A DNA stretch of 48,983 nt, taken from the UHGV virus genome UHGV-0385359; one strand, written 5' to 3'. The DNA comes from a virus. This document shows positions 4,971 through 12,606 of the stretch, piece after piece. The translations under genes were made by a program, and so were the position numbers. The notes below the pieces were generated by a model that was not told where the DNA came from, ran no database searches, and saw only the letters and a list, made by a program, of their open reading frames with translations. Each line of letters begins with the position of its first letter. Positions within the stretch are counted from its first letter, which is position 1.

Positions 4971-5497
4971 TGGCGCAACTCCATCAGTTCATTGAATCGG
5001 GTCATGAAAAGCCCAAACGCCTGCCCGGGGCGAAGAGGGTATATTTCAAACAAATCTGTCGGTGGAATACCTTCCAGCATCACCCACGGAATACTGTCAT
5101 CGATATCCAGATCTCGGCGTTCGGTCGCGAGCATGGTCAGGTCGGCATATTTAACGAGGTATGTCTCGTTAAGCGGCAGGCCGAACTTCAGGCGGATCAG
5201 TTGATCTGTGCGCGTCTCGATCCGGCGGTAGTCTGGCAACAGTGCTTTAAGTGGTGCCGGGATGTCCTGGCAGTACGCCTCTGCGGCATCATGCATCAGC
5301 GCTTCAAAGGCGAACTCTGGCGCCACGAGCTGGCTGCACAGAACGGAATGCTGCGCCACGCTGTAAAACTCTGGCAGGTGTCCAGCAAAACGGCAGATAT
5401 TAGAAAGTGCGCCAGCGATATCCTCAATATCAATATCGTCAACTGTTGAGTTGAGATAATCAAATTGCTTGCCAGAAAGCGTCTGGATAAAGCTCAT
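4958..5497 (-). CDS. yfdR: HD-domain phosphohydrolase (YfdR-like 5'-deoxynucleotidase family)
   Basis: 179 aa with NICRFAGH...YSVAQHSVLCS...EALMHDAAEAYCQDIPAPLK, matching the CPS-53 YfdR / YfbR HD-hydrolase signature as recalled. Confidence 0.7.
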   Translation of the reverse strand: MSFIQTLSGKQFDYLNSTVDDIDIEDIAGALSNICRFAGHLPEFYSVAQHSVLCSQLVAPEFAFEALMHDAAEAYCQDIPAPLKALLPDYRRIETRTDQLIRLKFGLPLNETYLVKYADLTMLATERRDLDIDDSIPWVMLEGIPPTDLFEIYPLRPGQAFGLFMTRFNELMELRQCAA

Positions 5498-6456: not shown

Positions 6457-6512
6457 AAAAATTCCTTATTAATAGATGATCGAAGTGGTATCAGTGACTT
6501 TGTTGTTGCGGA

Positions 6513-6884
6513 TCACTGAGCCGCTTTAAGCTTTCCGTCCACCGCGCCGGTGATCCCGAACAGTTGCCCCTGATCCTCCTGGAGGATGGTTAGCTTCCCG
6601 CCTTTGTTAACCCACATAGGGGTTTCGGTTGTGTCCTCTTCGGAGGCTTTACCGCGCGGGGTTGGGGTGCTGTAGTTCAGCTTGTGCTTGATCTTGACGC
6701 GCTTCTCTTCAACGGAATTACCCATACGCTCAAAATCAAAGGTGAGGACTACTTTGCCTTTGTTGCCGTTGTTCAGAACGCCAAGCGCGGTGGTGTTAAG
6801 TGCTGCCGCGATTTTGTTCATGAACACACCGGCATCCAGCTCGCCCAAAAAGTCGGGCACTACGGTCATGCGGTCATTACTCAT
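6513..6884 (-). CDS. hypothetical protein (yfdP position); start trimmed to an RBS-supported Met
   Basis: GAGGG-N7-ATG at 6884. First gene of the leftward early operon, downstream of the PL-like region. Confidence 0.45.
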   Translation of the reverse strand: MSNDRMTVVPDFLGELDAGVFMNKIAAALNTTALGVLNNGNKGKVVLTFDFERMGNSVEEKRVKIKHKLNYSTPTPRGKASEEDTTETPMWVNKGGKLTILQEDQGQLFGITGAVDGKLKAAQ

Positions 6885-7170
6885 GGTTTTACCCTCGTTA
6901 TGGCGGCTGCCACCGCCGAACTTTCTCCATACACAACAGAGAAGGGCACCTGCATTTGTCGGCGACTGCAATCGCTATCCTCTTGCCCGGGTGGATTGGG
7001 TTATGAGCCCGTCGCCCGGTGATGCCCTTGTCTGTTGTGTAAAAAGGGCGGTACCGAGGTAGAACATTATCTTCGTCCCCCTTGCATAAGGTTGAAGACC
7101 CTGGTACCGCCAAGACTACACACAGCAATACTGGAACTACGGTTATCACGGTCCTGAGCGTGATTTTTTC

Positions 7171-7324
7171 GACAGGTATCTTCGGGCGGGGTGCCAGTGA
7201 CTAGCTGGCAACCCTACGGTGTTCCATAGCTGGTGTCCGTGGGTTCGACGGGACCGTGTCCACCAGGTGAGCGCGCTGGATTGGTAGTCACTCCAAACCG
7301 CAACCCCTCCCGAAGATACCTGTC
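7171..7324. promoter_or_regulatory. large structured inverted-repeat element in the PL leader (21-bp arms with one mismatch, nested inner helices)
   Basis: gacaggtatcttcgggcgggg (7171-7191) is complementary to cccctcccgaagatacctgtc (7304-7324). Nested complementary pairs inside: agtgacta/tagtcact and ctggtg/caccag. Confidence 0.5.
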
Positions 7325-7425
7325 AGCGAATCATCCGGTCATTCATACGCCACCGGCGGCTACTTCGTGGGCTTCCTGCCTGTTCGCTGTTGATGAATAC
7401 ATAATTAACCAATAGATAATATTTG

Positions 7426-7463
7426 TAAATAACCAATGGTTAATTTTGTGGGTTTTATAAGGT
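7426..7463. promoter_or_regulatory. OL operators (TTAACC-N3-GGTTAA family) and leftward early promoter region
   Basis: ttaaccaatggttaa (7449-7463) and a half-matched ttaaccaatagataa (7426-7440). The same motif recurs in OR upstream of cI/cro. Confidence 0.5.
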
Positions 7464-7541
7464 AATCAATTGTTTTTTAATGTTATTTATTTTTCTTAAA
7501 TAATGGTGATATGATTAAAAAAACACCGATAGGGGGTGGTA

Positions 7542-7748
7542 ATGGAACGTGACGAACTGGAAGAAGACCGAGCAGCTTTCATTGCGGGTGAGATTGGCGG
7601 CGTGGTTATTCAGTTAATTATTGATGGCGTTGAAATCAATCGGGACAACATCGTTGACTATCTGGAGGCCAAGCGCAGGGCGGTAGGGAATGTGATCCAC
7701 AAGGGGATACTGCGCGATTCAGCTGCAATGGTGAGAAAAGGGCAATAA
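7542..7748 (+). CDS. hypothetical small acidic protein
   Basis: AGGGGG RBS 6 nt before the ATG at 7542. Terminator hairpin immediately downstream. Confidence 0.45.
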   Translation: MERDELEEDRAAFIAGEIGGVVIQLIIDGVEINRDNIVDYLEAKRRAVGNVIHKGILRDSAAMVRKGQ

Positions 7749-7775
7749 AAAACCCGGCGCGGTGGCCGGGGTTAT
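7749..7775. terminator. bidirectional hairpin terminator between convergent genes
   Basis: cccggcgcggtggccggg hairpin flanked by A-run and T-rich sequence. Lies between the plus-strand gene and the SecB-like gene. Confidence 0.5.
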
Positions 7776-8140
7776 TCTGCTATAACCACTGGTAAGTTTA
7801 TGTTGTTGTATCCCGCCAGTCGAGTTGTTGCAATAGTGAACGCTCTTACATAAGGATACAGGGTGTTAACAACAATTGCTGTTGCCAATTCTTCGTGCGC
7901 GTCCGTCTCGCTCATGTCTCTGTCAAATTTCACAACAGCCATTTGGGTGGCGTTAAATATAAACTTCTCATTTTTAATGAGTTTAAGTGACAGCGCGAGC
8001 CTAAAACTGCGTTTGTCTTTAGTATTGTAATCGACGGCAGTATCTATGCTCATAGTAAATTCTTTACCGTCACTTGTTTTTTCTGTCGTGCGAGTAAGAC
8101 TGAAAGAGTCCACCCACATACTGGAAATTACAAATTTCAT
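7772..8140 (-). CDS. SecB-like chaperone (toxin-antitoxin-chaperone TAC component)
   Basis: 122 aa. Aligns with E. coli SecB along its length, e.g. TLYPYVRAFTIATTRLAGYNNINLPVVI versus [29 protein letters not shown]. Immediately downstream of the antitoxin. Confidence 0.75.
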   Translation of the reverse strand: MKFVISSMWVDSFSLTRTTEKTSDGKEFTMSIDTAVDYNTKDKRSFRLALSLKLIKNEKFIFNATQMAVVKFDRDMSETDAHEELATAIVVNTLYPYVRAFTIATTRLAGYNNINLPVVIAE

Positions 8141-8150
8141 AATATTTCCA

Positions 8151-8666
8151 TTAATGTGTCTTTTCTAAGAGAGTTGTTTCAACGGCAAATTCATTCACCC
8201 AAGAATTTGAAAAAGATACTTGTTTGAACCATGTAGTCTGAACTCTAGTAGAAACACCAGCCTTTTCACAAAGGTCTGCAAAAACAGCAGGGTAAGAATC
8301 AGCCACACGAAGTAACTTGTCCATCGACTCAGACTGGATCACATCGTTGTTTTCATATTTGGTGAAGGCATTTGGTCCACCGCCAAAAACAAGTGAAGCC
8401 TCATCTTGTGTTAGTCCAAGCCGGATGCGAATGTCGTAAACTTCTTTGCCAGTAAGCAATCCATCCACTTCTTTTTTGAAGCAATTCATAACTCGTTTAT
8501 TGTATTTGAGTTCGCTTGCACCCACTTGCTCTACATGACAAGAATCACAGATAAAGTAAGTATCAGTAACTTGTTTTATCCTGCCTTTATAAGTGATCTG
8601 ATCCTCTTCCATCTTCTTAGTCAGATGTCCTTTGCCGCAAAGGGGGCAAATCTCTCCATTTTTCAT
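8151..8666 (-). CDS. MqsA-like antitoxin (Zn-ribbon + XRE HTH) with C-terminal aromatic-rich extension (putative chaperone-addiction segment)
   Basis: CPLCGKG...CDSCH zinc ribbon. LTQDEASLVFGGGPNAFTKYENN...MDKLLRV matches the MqsA HTH (LTQKEASEIFGGGVNAFSRYEKGN..TIKLLRV). Extra ~45 aa C-terminus (…WFKQVSFSNSWVNEF…). AGGAGG RBS before the ATG at 8666. Confidence 0.8.
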   Translation of the reverse strand: MKNGEICPLCGKGHLTKKMEEDQITYKGRIKQVTDTYFICDSCHVEQVGASELKYNKRVMNCFKKEVDGLLTGKEVYDIRIRLGLTQDEASLVFGGGPNAFTKYENNDVIQSESMDKLLRVADSYPAVFADLCEKAGVSTRVQTTWFKQVSFSNSWVNEFAVETTLLEKTH

Positions 8667-8682
8667 AAAGCCTCCTGAGTAG

Positions 8683-9078
8683 CTATGATGTGTGGTAAGA
8701 AACAGTAGTGACAACATTTCCAGCTGAATCGATGCAAAATTTAATATAAAAGTGACAATCCATTTCCTTGTAAGCAGCTTCTATCCATGCACTTTCAACC
8801 CAGGTATATGAGTCACACGCAGCCCAAGTATCTGGTTCGCTAAGCTCGCACCATTCTGACTGGTGAAACCTACCGCCTGTTACAGCATGTTTGATAATGT
8901 TCTTTAAGTCATCAGCATCTTTAGATAGGTCTCTAAGGTTTCTCCTGCACTTCTTAGTGCCGATCACCATAGTTGCAGCATCTATAATACTCAGGATGTC
9001 AGCATAAAGCGGGCCACCTGGGATTTGTTGTTTCTCCCCAGGAAAGTCTGATGAATGACGACTCACTATAGTTACCAT
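8683..9078 (-). CDS. MqsR-like toxin (putative mRNA interferase); start uncertain
   Basis: Sits directly upstream of the MqsA-like gene (toxin-first order, as in mqsRA). Weak but colinear similarity to MqsR, e.g. the C-terminal HFYIKFCIDSAGNVVTTVSY region versus YLKITVIHDVLIVSF. Confidence 0.5.
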   Translation of the reverse strand: MVTIVSRHSSDFPGEKQQIPGGPLYADILSIIDAATMVIGTKKCRRNLRDLSKDADDLKNIIKHAVTGGRFHQSEWCELSEPDTWAACDSYTWVESAWIEAAYKEMDCHFYIKFCIDSAGNVVTTVSYHTS

Positions 9079-9174
9079 TATGGTAAGTTCACTCCTTCCA
9101 TGTCAATGCAGATTGTGCTTATAGTTACCTACGCTTCCTGTACGTCTGCAGCATACTGTTGTCCGATTACGAAC

Positions 9175-9273
9175 TTATGCCCCCGGTGTGGCATACCCAC
9201 CCACAACAAACCAGGTTAAGAATGCGACTGCAACGATAAACACCAATATGGGGAAGGCTATCCCAATTCTCAT
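9175..9273 (-). CDS. small hydrophobic peptide (32 aa: MRIGIAFPILVFIVAVAFLTWFVVGGYATPGA)
   Basis: Strong RBS GGAGGG-N4-ATG. Single predicted TM helix. Below the ORF-track size cutoff. Confidence 0.45.
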   Translation of the reverse strand: MRIGIAFPILVFIVAVAFLTWFVVGGYATPGA

Positions 9274-9355
9274 AAATCCCTCCTCAAAAATTACCTGTAG
9301 CTCATATAATTGCTGTGAACCGTTTCCGACCTCGCTCAAGCGTCTCTTTCGTTCA

Positions 9356-9433
9356 TCACCAGTAAACGAGCAACTGTACGATCACAACGACAACAAGCAA
9401 CGTAACAAACCCAATAATCAGATTGTCTCTCAT
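9356..9433 (-). CDS. small hydrophobic peptide (25 aa: MRDNLIIGFVTLLVVVVIVQLLVYW)
   Basis: ATG with double stop TGATGA. Tandem and co-oriented with the other small membrane ORFs. Weak RBS. Confidence 0.3.
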   Translation of the reverse strand: MRDNLIIGFVTLLVVVVIVQLLVYW

Positions 9434-9614
9434 TAGCTATCAGCTCTCTTTAGTTGAATGCTAACGTCGACTAACCACACGGATAGCTGACCTTACTATC
9501 AGCATGATTGACGCATAACATGCTGAATTTAATGATCATTAATTACTATAACCAAAAGTAACTTTCGCCCACAGGGCTACACATTATTCCTGTATGCTAC
9601 CATCATCACTCTGG

Positions 9615-9809
9615 CTAAAGAAAAAGCACCACTACGGTCACAGCTACAAACGCAGCAAAAAGCATAGCCATGACGACAATGGCAAATGTCGTTGAATCCT
9701 GAATGTATGTTTTCTCCTGGCCCCTCATTGGGCCAAAAAATATAATCCAAATGAAGATGGCGGTGATTGAGATAACAGTGACTGCTATGAAAAACAGAAC
9801 CTCTCTCAA
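9615..9809 (-). CDS. small membrane protein (64 aa, two TM segments)
   Basis: TTG start preceded by G-rich SD-like AAGGGGGGG. Strongly hydrophobic. Confidence 0.4.
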   Translation of the reverse strand: MREVLFFIAVTVISITAIFIWIIFFGPMRGQEKTYIQDSTTFAIVVMAMLFAAFVAVTVVVLFL

Positions 9810-9910
9810 TTCCCCCCCTTACTTCAATGGCAAACCACACCAAAGCTCGCAGAGTGCATACCAGGCTGTCACACATGACAAAGTAACGAGGATACCTGAT
9901 CTCATAGCGC

Positions 9911-10066
9911 TCAAAGAGACATGCCGATAACGGCATTAACCACACTGGACGCCATAAACACGCCACCAACGATGAAACTCGCCTGGTTCTTCCTGGTAGC
10001 GCCAAGAGTCAACAGAACCACTGAAAGGGCAAAGAAAGGTATCGCGATTATGCTGAACGTGTTCAT
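9911..10066 (-). CDS. small membrane protein (51 aa, two TM segments) immediately downstream of cI
   Basis: AGGA-N8-ATG. The start lies 11 nt after the cI stop codon. MNTFSIIAIPFFALSVVLLTLG... Confidence 0.45.
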   Translation of the reverse strand: MNTFSIIAIPFFALSVVLLTLGATRKNQASFIVGGVFMASSVVNAVIGMSL

Positions 10067-10076
10067 GTATTTCGTC

Positions 10077-10811
10077 CTATAGGCGATTGTATCTAATGGA
10101 CTCGTGTATCAACGCTTTACCCATTACATACAGCTGGTCTTGCGATTTTTCATCAATGTACCACTTCTCATAAGCTGGGTTATCAGAGAGAACGGCAAGG
10201 CGATCACCCTGCATCTGAAGGCGCTTGACGTGGAACGTTCTGCCGTACACGAAAGAGTAAACGCCATCAGTCTGGAAATGCCGGACTGATATATCGACGA
10301 ACAGCCGATCCCCGGAAACGAGAGTAGGCGCCATGCTGTCACCATTGACAGTCATCACTTTCACATCTTCATGAGAGCGATTTCCGAAGAGTGAACGGGC
10401 ATGCTCGGTGGTGAACTCGATTGCATACAGCACTTCAACATAGTCCGAAAGCATGTAGTTTCCGGGGCCAGCACTGACAGCCAGATCCAGAACTTCAACG
10501 CGATAAACATCCTGATCAGAATTATTAACCATGCGTTTCACTTCCCCAGAATCAGTGGCCTCACCTACACCGTACTCCAGCCATTCCGCGCGGACGCCAA
10601 GCACTTTGCTGAGGGCTACTATTTTCTGACTGTCTGGGATGGCTTGGGCATTGAACCACTTCCAAACTCCAGGTGTAGTTATCTCTACCCCAGCTTTATT
10701 AAGCAGGTCCGCAAGGTTTTTATTTCTTCCGCGCCCCGTCAACCCTGCAAGCTGGCAAACGTGTAGCAATCTGGCCGTGAAGCCTTCTTTCGTTTCGTCT
10801 CTCTTAACCAT
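10077..10811 (-). CDS. cI: CI-type prophage repressor (HTH + S24 LexA-like peptidase)
   Basis: N-terminal HTH. C-terminal GDSMAPTL...KR (Ser/Lys dyad autocleavage domain). Divergent from cro across an operator region. Confidence 0.85.
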   Translation of the reverse strand: MVKRDETKEGFTARLLHVCQLAGLTGRGRNKNLADLLNKAGVEITTPGVWKWFNAQAIPDSQKIVALSKVLGVRAEWLEYGVGEATDSGEVKRMVNNSDQDVYRVEVLDLAVSAGPGNYMLSDYVEVLYAIEFTTEHARSLFGNRSHEDVKVMTVNGDSMAPTLVSGDRLFVDISVRHFQTDGVYSFVYGRTFHVKRLQMQGDRLAVLSDNPAYEKWYIDEKSQDQLYVMGKALIHESIRYNRL

Positions 10812-10876
10812 TGGTTAAATATCCGGGAACTTGACTTTACTGTCAGTTAATATTTATTATTAACTTGTGGTTAATT
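10804..10876. promoter_or_regulatory. OR operator cluster / PRM-PR region
   Basis: ttaaccattggttaa (10804-10818), ttaacttgtggttaa (10862-10876), and a palindromic gttaatatttattattaac site between them. Same TTAAC-N5-GTTAA motif as at OL. Confidence 0.55.
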
Positions 10877-10894
10877 TTGAAATCAGGAGAGATA

Positions 10895-11143
10895 ATGAAC
10901 GCTGTAGAAATTGCAGTTGACGCTGTTGGCGGGCAAACAGCAGCCGCAAAAATTTGCGGTTTATCCCCGGTAGCAGTCCACAGATGGGTTAAGAACGCCT
11001 GTCTTCCGCGGACTGAATACACCAAAAAAACGGAATACGCAGAGCTACTTGCAGCTAATTCAGCAGGTAAGTTTACGGCCGCGTGGCTGCTGGAAAACGC
11101 AAATCCTGATCGCCCTGAAAAGGTAAATGATTCAGCGGCCTAA
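10895..11143 (+). CDS. cro: Cro/YdaS-family transcriptional regulator
   Basis: 82 aa. CAGGAGAG RBS. GGQTAAAKICGLSPVAVHRW HTH typical of YdaS/Cro-like proteins. Divergent from cI. Confidence 0.7.
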   Translation: MNAVEIAVDAVGGQTAAAKICGLSPVAVHRWVKNACLPRTEYTKKTEYAELLAANSAGKFTAAWLLENANPDRPEKVNDSAA

Positions 11144-11171
11144 ACATAACCACAGAATCAAGGGGTTAACC

Positions 11172-11663
11172 GTGGGTAACGAACCTGAGTGGAAAGTGGA
11201 GCGTCAGCCAGCATGGCTGGTGGCCGCAATTAAAAAGACCATCACCGAACTTCCTGGCGGATATGCAGAAGCAGCGGAATGGCTGGGAGTGACAGAAAAC
11301 TCTCTTTTCAATCGGCTACGCATTGAAGGAGACCAAATCTTCCCGCTTGGCTGGGCGCTAGTGTTACAGCGCGCTGGTGGCTCAAACCATATAGCTGACG
11401 CCGTAGCCCGCCATTCAAACGGTGTCTTTGTTCCGCTTGCAGATGTTGATGATGTGGATAACGGGGATATCAATCAGCGCCTTATGGAGTCGATCGAATG
11501 GATTGGCAAACATTCTCACTACGTCCGTAAAGCCACTGCTGACGGAATCATTGATGAGGCAGAACGAGCTCAGATCGAGGAGAACAGTTACAAGGTCATG
11601 GCTAAGTGGCAGGAACACATCACGCTGCTGTATCGCGTTTTTTGTGTTTCTGAAAAAGAGTGA
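11172..11663 (+). CDS. CII-like regulator (YdaT / 186-CII family); GTG start inferred
   Basis: HTH AEAAEWLGVTENSLFNRL resembles 186 CII / YdaT. AAGGGG-N6-GTG. An alternative ATG at 11127 lies inside cro. Confidence 0.5.
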   Translation: MGNEPEWKVERQPAWLVAAIKKTITELPGGYAEAAEWLGVTENSLFNRLRIEGDQIFPLGWALVLQRAGGSNHIADAVARHSNGVFVPLADVDDVDNGDINQRLMESIEWIGKHSHYVRKATADGIIDEAERAQIEENSYKVMAKWQEHITLLYRVFCVSEKE

Positions 11664-11892
11664 CGCCCGCAGGTGTGCAGCCTCGGGCGTCTGGCGAACA
11701 ACTCTTCGTGTATGGAGAAATAATCCGCATGAGCAATTTAATCGTAAATTCTCATTTACCGCAACTCAGGATGATCCCTGTTCCGGGTTCACCGTCGTTT
11801 CGGTATGAGCGCAGAGTATCAAACCGCTGGGTTACGTGTAACCACAGCCGCGCGACCGCAATTGTGGGGGTATTTAACCGGAGGGCGGCGCA

Positions 11893-12606
11893 ATGGTTCA
11901 GCAAATAAACGGGGTTAATGTTCTGGCACCAGCACCTTTGCTGGTTAATGGTCGCGTAACGATGAGCAGTCGAGAAATTTCTACGCTGACTGGCAAGCAA
12001 CACGGTCATGTTTGCCGGGACATCGAAACAATGCTGGAGCAGCTTGGGGAACGATCTGAAGGGTATATCCATATTTGGACACACCCACAGAATGGTCAGC
12101 AATACAGAGAGTTCCGCCTTGATCGTGAGCATACCGAATGCTTAATCACCGGATACAGTGCAGTGCTGCGGATGAAAATTATCCGTCGTCTGAGAGAGTT
12201 AGAAGAGGGGCATACGCCGCTGCCGCAGACCCTACCGGAAGCACTTCGTCTGGCTGCCGATATGGCAGAGCAGAATGCGGCGCTGGTAAGCAAGGTACAA
12301 CAGGACGCGCCAAAAGTGGCATTCGTAGAACAGTACGTAGAGGCCGGTGGCGCGAAAAGCCTGCGGGAGACCGCGAAGATCCTCAATATGCCTGAAAAGG
12401 CGATGATCGACGCTCTGGTACGCGACAAAGTCCTTTTCCGACAGTCCGGCAATCTGCTTCCACACGCACTGCGCCAGCGTGATGGCCTGTTCACTGTAAA
12501 GACCGGTTCATCTGAGTTTGGTCATGCCTATACGCAGACCCGCGTAACGCCCCGCGGCGTCCAGTGGATAGCTGATCGCTACGCTTCAGAACTGATGAGA
12601 GGCTGA
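11893..12606 (+). CDS. Rha-family regulator / antirepressor (pRha N-domain + KilAC C-domain)
   Basis: N-terminal SSREISTLTGKQHGHVCRDI (Phage_pRha-like) and a C-terminal KilA-C-like region. GGAGGG RBS. Confidence 0.7.
   Translation: MVQQINGVNVLAPAPLLVNGRVTMSSREISTLTGKQHGHVCRDIETMLEQLGERSEGYIHIWTHPQNGQQYREFRLDREHTECLITGYSAVLRMKIIRRLRELEEGHTPLPQTLPEALRLAADMAEQNAALVSKVQQDAPKVAFVEQYVEAGGAKSLRETAKILNMPEKAMIDALVRDKVLFRQSGNLLPHALRQRDGLFTVKTGSSEFGHAYTQTRVTPRGVQWIADRYASELMRG

Follow-up and report, generated by a model that had tools for sequence, protein, structure and literature searches.

In phage lambda, the rexA and rexB genes are expressed in the lysogen, and RexB is an inner-membrane protein of 144 aa with four transmembrane (TM) segments; SieB, T4 Imm, and RexB have sizes of about 83–190 aa. 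Annotation of small membrane proteins is systematically incomplete, and only a few of them have a known function. To our knowledge, no function is known for any member of one such family, YoaK. The YoaK protein of Escherichia coli K-12 is an uncharacterized small protein that has been detected as a tagged protein (10.1101/511675), and it serves in vitro as an RseP substrate in work that handles it as a small membrane protein (PMC10470546). Here, we analyze four small hydrophobic open reading frames (ORFs) of 25–64 aa, including a YoaK homolog, which occupy positions 10066 to 9175 (minus strand) of the viral genome UHGV-0385359 (48,983 nt in all; hereafter, the window). They lie between a cI-type repressor gene and a toxin–antitoxin–chaperone (TAC) module. 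We assign the window to a lambdoid Citrobacter koseri prophage, since exact copies of its proteins bear that species name at NCBI.

We propose, with a probability of roughly 0.6, that these ORFs are genuine inner-membrane micro-protein genes in the cI unit, that they are made in the lysogen, and that they act on host membrane proteins, with exclusion of other phages or a fitness benefit as the likely outcome. Judging from comparisons of related sequences, all four ORFs appear to be genes, conserved as reading frames under purifying selection. The conservation check suggested in the preliminary description of this DNA gave an in-frame synonymous excess for ORF1, ORF2, and ORF4 (YoaK), as well as intact homologs of ORF3 elsewhere. 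The position of the ORFs is also unusual: only eight ORFs of 25–70 aa with a grand average of hydropathy (GRAVY) of at least 1.3 occur in the entire 49-kb window on both strands, and four of these eight lie within these 892 bp on one strand, a clustering of hydrophobic small ORFs that is far beyond chance.

The repressor gene (10077..10811, minus strand) encodes a 244-aa protein with HTH and Peptidase_S24 domains (from the ORF list; Pfam Peptidase_S24, E=1.4e-16) that carries the public names “S24 family peptidase” and “Repressor protein CI.” Its TAG stop codon is at 10079..10077. It is the first gene of the leftward transcription unit that holds the small ORFs, and on its other side lie a divergent Cro-like gene (10895..) and a CII (CP76) gene (11127..). 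The minus-strand order is cI, small ORFs, TAC, and then a strong hairpin with a T-run at 7770..7753, 3′ of TAC. Because TAC and the terminator hairpin end the unit on one side and the Cro-like and CII genes diverge beyond cI, the small ORFs occupy the rexAB-equivalent slot, as had been proposed. All four are on the minus strand at the coordinates first given for them; a fifth ORF (ORF1b) had been missed. With it included, cI, ORF1, ORF1b, and ORF2 are packed end to end, with gaps of 10, 5, and 9 nt. ORF1 thus follows cI directly, as described, although the gap is 10 nt rather than 11 nt. The arrangement is that of a repressor operon of the pRM type, in that the ORFs share the strand of cI, lie directly 3′ of it, and are followed by a terminator only after the cargo.

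ORF4 (9273..9175, minus strand, ATG start) encodes a 32-aa YoaK-family small membrane protein of the “MRIGIAFP” prophage subtype. Its sequence (MRIGIAFPILVFIVAVAFLTWFVVGGYATPGA) has the family length of 31–32 aa, with both the MRIGI.FP N-terminus and the WF..GGY..PG C-terminus, and includes an apolar stretch of 21 residues. It scores 65.6 bits against NF033821 (cut-off 32; residues 1–32 on profile positions 1–32; E=2.1e-18) and shares 69% identity with E. coli K-12 YoaK (b4676). NCBI/PGAP already calls it a “YoaK family small membrane protein,” and the identical protein has a precomputed PF28021:YoaK assignment. ORF4 is, then, a full-length member of a known family that is already annotated in public genomes, and not an unknown. 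Two of the ORFs were initially thought to have been overlooked by annotation; this fails for ORF4 and stands for ORF3, the exact sequence of which is absent from a 15-billion-protein collection. The ribosome binding site first noted for ORF4 is present, a Shine-Dalgarno (SD) motif GAGGAGGG located 4 nt 5′ of the ATG.

To place ORF4 within its family, YoaK loci were retrieved by a degenerate DNA pattern, and 144 loci carry the motifs. The pattern occurs at 82 places in species-representative genomes, nearly all Enterobacteriaceae, and these fall into two subtypes. Subtype A (MRIGI[ILV]FPVVIFITAV...) is located after dgcP, a diguanylate cyclase gene, which is also the K-12 arrangement. Subtype B (MRIGIAFP.LVFIVAVAFL...), which includes ORF4, has chromosomal copies in varied contexts in Kosakonia, Scandinavium, Phytobacter, Pluralibacter, and Yokenella. 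The dgcP-yoaK-yoaJ synteny, which is typical of subtype A and no requirement of the family, is absent from the window, where the order is cI, further small ORFs, ORF3, YoaK, and TAC. Across 103 distinct DNA versions of YoaK, the median proportion of synonymous differences (pS) is 0.77 and the median proportion of non-synonymous differences (pN) is 0.13; YoaK comparisons gave pS 0.5–0.97 with pN 0–0.2. The comparison of ORF4 with a chromosomal yoaK of Phytobacter yielded 17 synonymous and 0 non-synonymous differences, and chromosomal subtype-B proteins are up to 100% identical to the prophage copy with synonymous sites near saturation. Such near-absolute conservation suggests a specific partner. 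The neighborhoods of chromosomal subtype-B yoaK genes (KTSC protein, ecotin-like gene, F420 oxidoreductase, tilS-like) give no functional hint. The ecotin-like gene, identified by eye, is found just 3′ of yoaK in three of these loci, from Scandinavium, Pluralibacter, and Citrobacter sp. (L070, L088, and L104; loci are designated by L numbers throughout).

In phages, the context of YoaK is consistent. The pattern retrieved 44 viral contigs from IMG/VR, all with true YoaK homologs, and 40 of these include upstream sequence. Among the 40, at least 31 have a repressor gene directly 5′ of this YoaK subtype on the same strand (domains in the upstream ORFs: HTH_3, 30; Phage_CI_repr, 20; Peptidase_S24, 14), mostly with a gap of 10–17 nt from repressor stop to YoaK start. 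The cargo on the 3′ side is highly variable and includes ParA-like, HigB-like, ImmA/IrrE-like, S49-type protease, NYN, and KilAC-type proteins. In Rac-like Citrobacter prophages, a YoaK variant with one residue different begins 12 nt after an S24 repressor, and in loci L009–L014 a repressor and YoaK occur without the other small ORFs. In the coliphages mEp234, HK106, and mEp506, cI and hicAB flank a YoaK gene that the records do not annotate, and in mEp234 it falls in the operon annotated from pRM to Timm. Plasmids seldom carry YoaK (9 of 72,556 records, including some mislabeled chromosomes), and the mEp234 type is rare in E. coli (6 of 5,426 genomes). Our literature search found no paper connecting YoaK with prophages. 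Altogether, these comparisons indicate that the repressor operon carries YoaK as a recurrent passenger, which we regard as a comparative finding of modest novelty. In a separate observation, the YoaK of Klebsiella phage ST974-OXA48phi18.2 (L156, 2480..2599) is mislabeled as “CI transcriptional regulator.”

ORF1 (10066..9911, minus strand, ATG start) encodes a 51-aa small membrane protein of an unnamed conserved family, predicted to be a helical hairpin with two TM segments. Its AGGA SD motif overlaps the cI stop codon. A protein search returned 50 clusters at 60–96% identity, mostly of exactly 51 aa, and the alignment of relatives shows the conserved pattern MNTFSIIAIPFF...RK...GGVFMASSVVNAVIGMSL. 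Synonymous to non-synonymous changes number 7:1 against L006, 7:2 against HK97, and 3:1 against L019, for a total of 17:4. The AlphaFold2 model has a mean predicted local distance difference test (pLDDT) score of 92, with helices at residues 3–25 and 28–50, which is a confident prediction of the hairpin fold. The DNA segment that bears ORF1 (9828..10068) is found at 95% identity in HK97, HK225, a Lambdavirus record, and 52 E. coli genomes, and distant relatives of the protein are chromosomal in Klebsiella oxytoca and Lelliottia. ORF1 is unannotated in HK97 and was called by PGAP in one genome.

In all three places examined (HK97, HK225, and an E. coli prophage), the ORF1 segment sits 3′ of a different cI. 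In both HK97 (L002, 2455..2502) and HK225, the stretch from the resident cI to ORF1 still contains a remnant of a Phage_CI_repr-type repressor gene, namely its 3′ end (...MGRRIKGDGESK*). The same ending is the genuine end of the repressor in L019 and L006, where ORF1 begins 12–13 nt after it. Since the tail is a relic in the first pair and a real gene end in the second, ORF1 has traveled with the tail of a repressor gene. A foreign repressor 3′-end relic (...KHG*-like) likewise lies between the resident cI and YoaK in mEp234 (L155, 1480..1560). The relics show that immunity swaps took place by recombination within repressor genes, carrying the micro-ORF along.

ORF2 (9809..9615, minus strand) has a TTG start and encodes a 64-aa small membrane protein with two TM segments, of a rare family: three clusters at 90%, six representatives at 50%, and identities down to 37%. 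Its full-length relatives are 64–65 aa long, and the loop between the helices (GP..G.EKTY.QDSTTFA) is kept even at 37–39% identity. The start is preceded by a poly-G tract (GGGGGGGAA; 9810..9818, minus strand), which we mark as the SD motif because L006 has a canonical AGGAGG there (GGAGGAAAA). The length of the tract differs among relatives (L005–L008, at about 5455..5464), with seven G in the window and L005 and eight G in L007 and L008. The TTG and the SD motif are kept in L005–L008 and in a Salmonella locus (L153), and the TTG is also present in L019. Changes in the ORF2 frame are 16 synonymous to 10 non-synonymous, versus 6:20 in an overlapping 142-aa frame.

Longer forms of ORF2 exist in the databases. 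We rejected a 107-aa “long form,” the N-terminal part of which lies in a frame with synonymous to non-synonymous ratios of 7:16 and 6:20. From the protein sequences of the 107-aa (P0017 and P0018) and 74-aa (P0021) “fusion” calls, these probably arise from indels in the poly-G/A tract. The variation in tract length itself could be sequencing noise or real homopolymer slippage that affects ORF2 translation.

ORF3 (9433..9356, minus strand, ATG start) encodes a 25-aa peptide with a single TM segment and is probably a real gene, based on two comparisons. In the Salmonella locus L153 it is intact, with five synonymous and four conservative (I/V/L) changes, a small number of substitutions. A homolog of 23–24 aa (MREYLIVGVVTLLSVVAIVLMVA) lies between the repressor and YoaK in L023, L026, and L057, with 13 of 19 residues identical (68%; E=9e-7; pS 0.65, pN 0.24). 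YoaJ, the product of a 24-aa gene beside yoaK in E. coli, resembles ORF3 in its length of about 25 aa, its single TM segment, and its yoaK neighbor. We rejected the assignment of ORF3 to YoaJ: E. coli YoaJ scores 60.4 bits on NF011343 (cut-off 54) whereas ORF3 gives no match at E≤1, the two do not align by BLASTP, and ORF3 is 5′ of yoaK whereas E. coli yoaJ is 3′ of it.

Other micro-ORFs occur in the same position. A family of about 30 aa (MKESSRFALIVIALLLCVLFVVQAIVLLVK, MKDSTRFALIVISLVMCVLFLVQATVLLVK) is found directly 5′ of YoaK in the viral contigs L025 and L044 and on the Klebsiella sp. plasmid NZ_CP170105.1 (L132); these MKESSRFALIV... peptides do not align with ORF3, and we treat them as a separate family. 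The ORF3-like micro-ORFs of L057 (about 8905..9030, reverse) and L026 (3950..4106) are flanked by a 21-nt direct repeat, GTGGCCTGATGAGGTGTTTGG, which resembles the trace that duplication or insertion of a cassette would leave.

The fifth candidate, ORF1b (9905..9819, minus strand; ATG at 9905, stop at 9821..9819), would encode a Cys-rich, hydrophobic peptide of 28 aa (MRSGILVTLSCVTAWYALCELWCGLPLK). It fills the 101-nt gap between ORF1 and ORF2, with an ATG 5 nt past the ORF1 stop and a TAA 9 nt 5′ of the ORF2 TTG. It is intact in L153 although ORF1 is frameshifted there. In the ORF1b frame, synonymous changes number 12 and non-synonymous changes 11, versus 7:16 and 6:17 in the other sense frames, counts that are based on few substitutions. 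Peptides with an LCELWC motif that are akin to ORF1b lie directly 5′ of YoaK in L033, L041, L046, and L060. Altogether, ORF1b is a possible gene.

Several observations weigh against our proposal. The preliminary description had named frame-disrupting variation as a sign that the ORFs are not genes, and such variation is present in part: in one Salmonella locus (L153) a frameshift has made ORF1 a pseudogene, so that it must be dispensable there, and ORF1b is cut by a premature stop in HK97 and HK225, while ORF2 and ORF3 are intact in L153. ORF1b has no good SD motif, and that of ORF3 is weak (GAGAG at −17..−13). Two weak terminator-like hairpins within the coding sequences of ORF1 and ORF2 could attenuate read-through. 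With respect to function, no peptide has homology to a proven exclusion protein in Pfam, NCBIfam, PHROG, or PADLOC; YoaK and ORF1 are also ordinary chromosomal genes, for which a housekeeping or physiological role fits at least as well as exclusion; and what the peptides do is something that we infer.

The first of these points bear on an alternative in which part or all of the ORF set is spurious: ORF3 and ORF1b might be open by chance, or the true genes might be the 142-aa frame over ORF2 or the HK225 genes gp45 and gp44. HK225 does annotate opposite-strand ORFs over ORF1, and the 142-aa frame is open both in the window and in L153; the truncation of ORF1b in HK97, the poor SD motifs of ORF3 and ORF1b, and the few substitutions behind their synonymous and non-synonymous counts also fit. 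However, the 142-aa frame is closed by the eight-G variants L007 and L008 and has the 6:20 ratio given above, and the antisense frame of ORF1 gains a stop in the K. oxytoca homolog, in which ORF1 itself is intact. ORF3, in turn, has its 68%-identical homolog at the same place relative to YoaK in unrelated prophages. We therefore regard this explanation as unlikely overall: it is effectively excluded for ORF1, ORF2, and YoaK, and it retains some weight for ORF1b and, to a lesser extent, for ORF3. The HK225 annotation (L001, 2439..2784), with gp45 and gp44 on the strand opposite ORF1 and ORF1b, is itself an annotation error.

The TAC module downstream of the small ORFs (9078..7772, with the terminator to 7753; minus strand) encodes a 131-aa putative toxin, a 171-aa MqsA-family antitoxin (MqsA TIGR03830, 119.7 bits) with a C-terminal extension, and a 122-aa SecB-like chaperone (SecB PF02556, E=6e-5; the PD-T4-9 defense chaperone, PADLOC PD-T4-9_C, E=1.9e-8). 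The putative toxin has no match in Pfam, NCBIfam, PHROGs, PADLOC, or PDB sequences. A consensus scan found a promoter-like site (TTGACA-18-CATAAT, 11/12) at 9106..9077 on the minus strand that is conserved in L005–L008, which suggests that TAC is a separate, self-promoted unit. The site overlaps the annotated ATG of the 131-aa protein; the true start may be downstream, and some records call a protein of 127 aa.

The peptides had been suggested to be membrane partners or accessory subunits of this TAC. In keeping with this, three different C. koseri repressors are followed by the block from ORF1 to YoaK plus TAC, conserved at about 98% identity, and weak SecB-like matches are found near YoaK, on its 3′ side, in L023 and L049. 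Such matches occur in only these 2 of the 44 viral contigs, however; elsewhere YoaK is accompanied by hicAB, an S49-type protease, ParA-like, ImmA-like, NYN, or other proteins, or it stands alone. ORF1 adjoins gp49/gp48 in HK97. In L019, the repressor is followed by ORF1, ORF1b, and ORF2 only, without TAC. The Salmonella enterica locus L153 (GCA_011192615.1, 3558..4195), also without TAC, has ORF3, the frameshifted ORF1, ORF1b, and ORF2 between a tail-fiber assembly gene and an integrase, in another order and another prophage region. Thus, YoaK and ORF1 mostly occur without TAC and beside varied cargo, and TAC has its own promoter-like site. Because co-occurrence fails, the partnership is largely refuted, and we consider it highly improbable. 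The small ORFs are better described, on this comparative evidence, as independent cassettes that were apparently shuffled by recombination than as one multi-part system, and together with TAC they seem to form three units: ORF1, ORF1b, and ORF2; ORF3 and YoaK; and the self-promoted TAC. At the DNA level, searches for relatives of 9100..9830 (megablast and blastn against phages and 5,426 E. coli genomes) returned the ORF1 segment of the HK97 type and one weak Klebsiella phage match only, and ORF2, ORF3, and YoaK had no match in the E. coli genomes.

A second suggestion was that the peptides might be SieB, Imm, or membrane toxins of the Hok/Ldr kind. The Pfam and NCBIfam libraries include Hok and Ldr models. 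None of these identities was borne out, as the peptides have no match to these families, or to RexB, at E≤1 in Pfam, NCBIfam, PHROG, or PADLOC, and an Rfam scan of 6500..12000 found no family at E≤1 and hence no known antisense RNA. Membrane-damaging toxins of the type I or holin-like kind (in the style of Hok, Ldr, or TisB), silent until phage attack and serving as abortive-infection effectors, would share the short length, strong hydrophobicity, and single or double helix of the peptides, and a 9/12 promoter-like site on the opposite strand (9508..9536) could give an RNA antisense to ORF2. Against this, the operon that holds the ORFs is a constitutive repressor operon, their SD motifs are ordinary, and no structured leader precedes them. 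The antisense promoter-like site is at background (8 found versus 6.3 expected from shuffled sequence) and lies in the 181-nt spacer between ORF2 and ORF3, which has a marginal folding z of −1.95 and is absent from L019 and L153. In the parts of the RseP study on which we draw, growth inhibition on expression is described for HokB, with no such report for YoaK (PMC10470546). We therefore consider a toxin role very unlikely, and as judged by these comparisons the peptides would be neither type I toxins nor TAC components.

How, then, might the micro-proteins act? We propose that the small ORFs share the transcript of the repressor, which would keep the peptides in constant production in the lysogen; co-transcription with cI is inferred because no convincing terminator separates the ORFs from cI. 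The peptides would insert in the inner membrane and bind a host membrane protein, which is how characterized small membrane proteins of bacteria work. The phage would most probably gain protection of the lysogen from other phages at the DNA-entry step, or another effect on lysogen fitness. By analogy, superinfection exclusion is plausible.

A different explanation is lysogenic conversion, in which prophage YoaK would supply or override a host YoaK-type regulator of a membrane protein, with similar roles for the other peptides. This accords with the chromosomal subtype-B yoaK genes of Phytobacter, Kosakonia, Scandinavium, Pluralibacter, and Yokenella, which encode proteins up to 100% identical to that of the prophage, with the chromosomal ORF1 relatives of Klebsiella oxytoca and Lelliottia, and with a strict conservation that suggests a specific, conserved host partner. 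Yet the chromosomal contexts are inconsistent and indicate no partner, and the slot behind the repressor, ahead of TA/TAC and other candidate defense genes, is typical for prophage defense genes. We view conversion as possible, if doubtful. The slot, which holds defense cargo elsewhere, favors exclusion, and the chromosomal homologs favor altered host physiology.

A broader and more tentative idea, which we would not hold as probable, is that YoaK, ORF1, ORF2, ORF3, and the LCELWC-type peptides belong to an unrecognized class of repressor-coupled micro-proteins of enterobacterial temperate phages, which might exclude competitors or stabilize lysogeny through a conserved inner-membrane target, and which phages might keep attached to the 3′ end of the repressor even through immunity swaps. 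If true, the phage context would give a first function for K-12 YoaK. Even in the narrower reading that we prefer, that of inner-membrane micro-protein genes in the cI unit, a temperate phage would carry four or five small membrane proteins in a transcript that is always on in the lysogen. The K-12 phages mEp234, HK106, mEp506, and HK97 carry such genes unannotated and offer a cheap experimental route to the functions of YoaK and of the HK97 51-aa protein. The locus also exposes a gap in annotation: none of the five peptides has a match in PHROGs or PADLOC; the genes are unannotated in HK97, mEp234, HK106, and mEp506; and they are wrongly annotated in HK225 and one Klebsiella phage.

Compared with known systems, the YoaK family and lysogen-expressed membrane morons behind cI are familiar, and the linkage of repressor and YoaK is modestly new. 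ORF4 shares with K-12 YoaK its length of 32 aa and the MRIGI.FP...WF..GGY..PG signature, and it differs in belonging to subtype B, in having no link to dgcP or yoaJ, and in being carried by a prophage behind a repressor. Like lambda rexA-rexB, which are co-transcribed with cI from pRM, the small ORFs lie between cI and the terminator of the immunity region; unlike rexAB, they have no sequence kinship with those genes, encode only 25–64 aa, have no RexA-like partner, and are mutually independent cassettes. T4 Imm, P22 SieA and SieB, and HK97 gp15 are phage or prophage inner-membrane protectors that provide a working analogy for mechanism only, as no homology was detected and the peptides, at 25–64 aa, are smaller. 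In size, in their single helix or hairpin, and in a strong constraint that may reflect a specific partner, the small ORFs resemble MgrB, AcrZ, MgtS, SgrT, and CydX, and they differ from regulators of the MgrB type in their location within the repressor operon of a mobile element.

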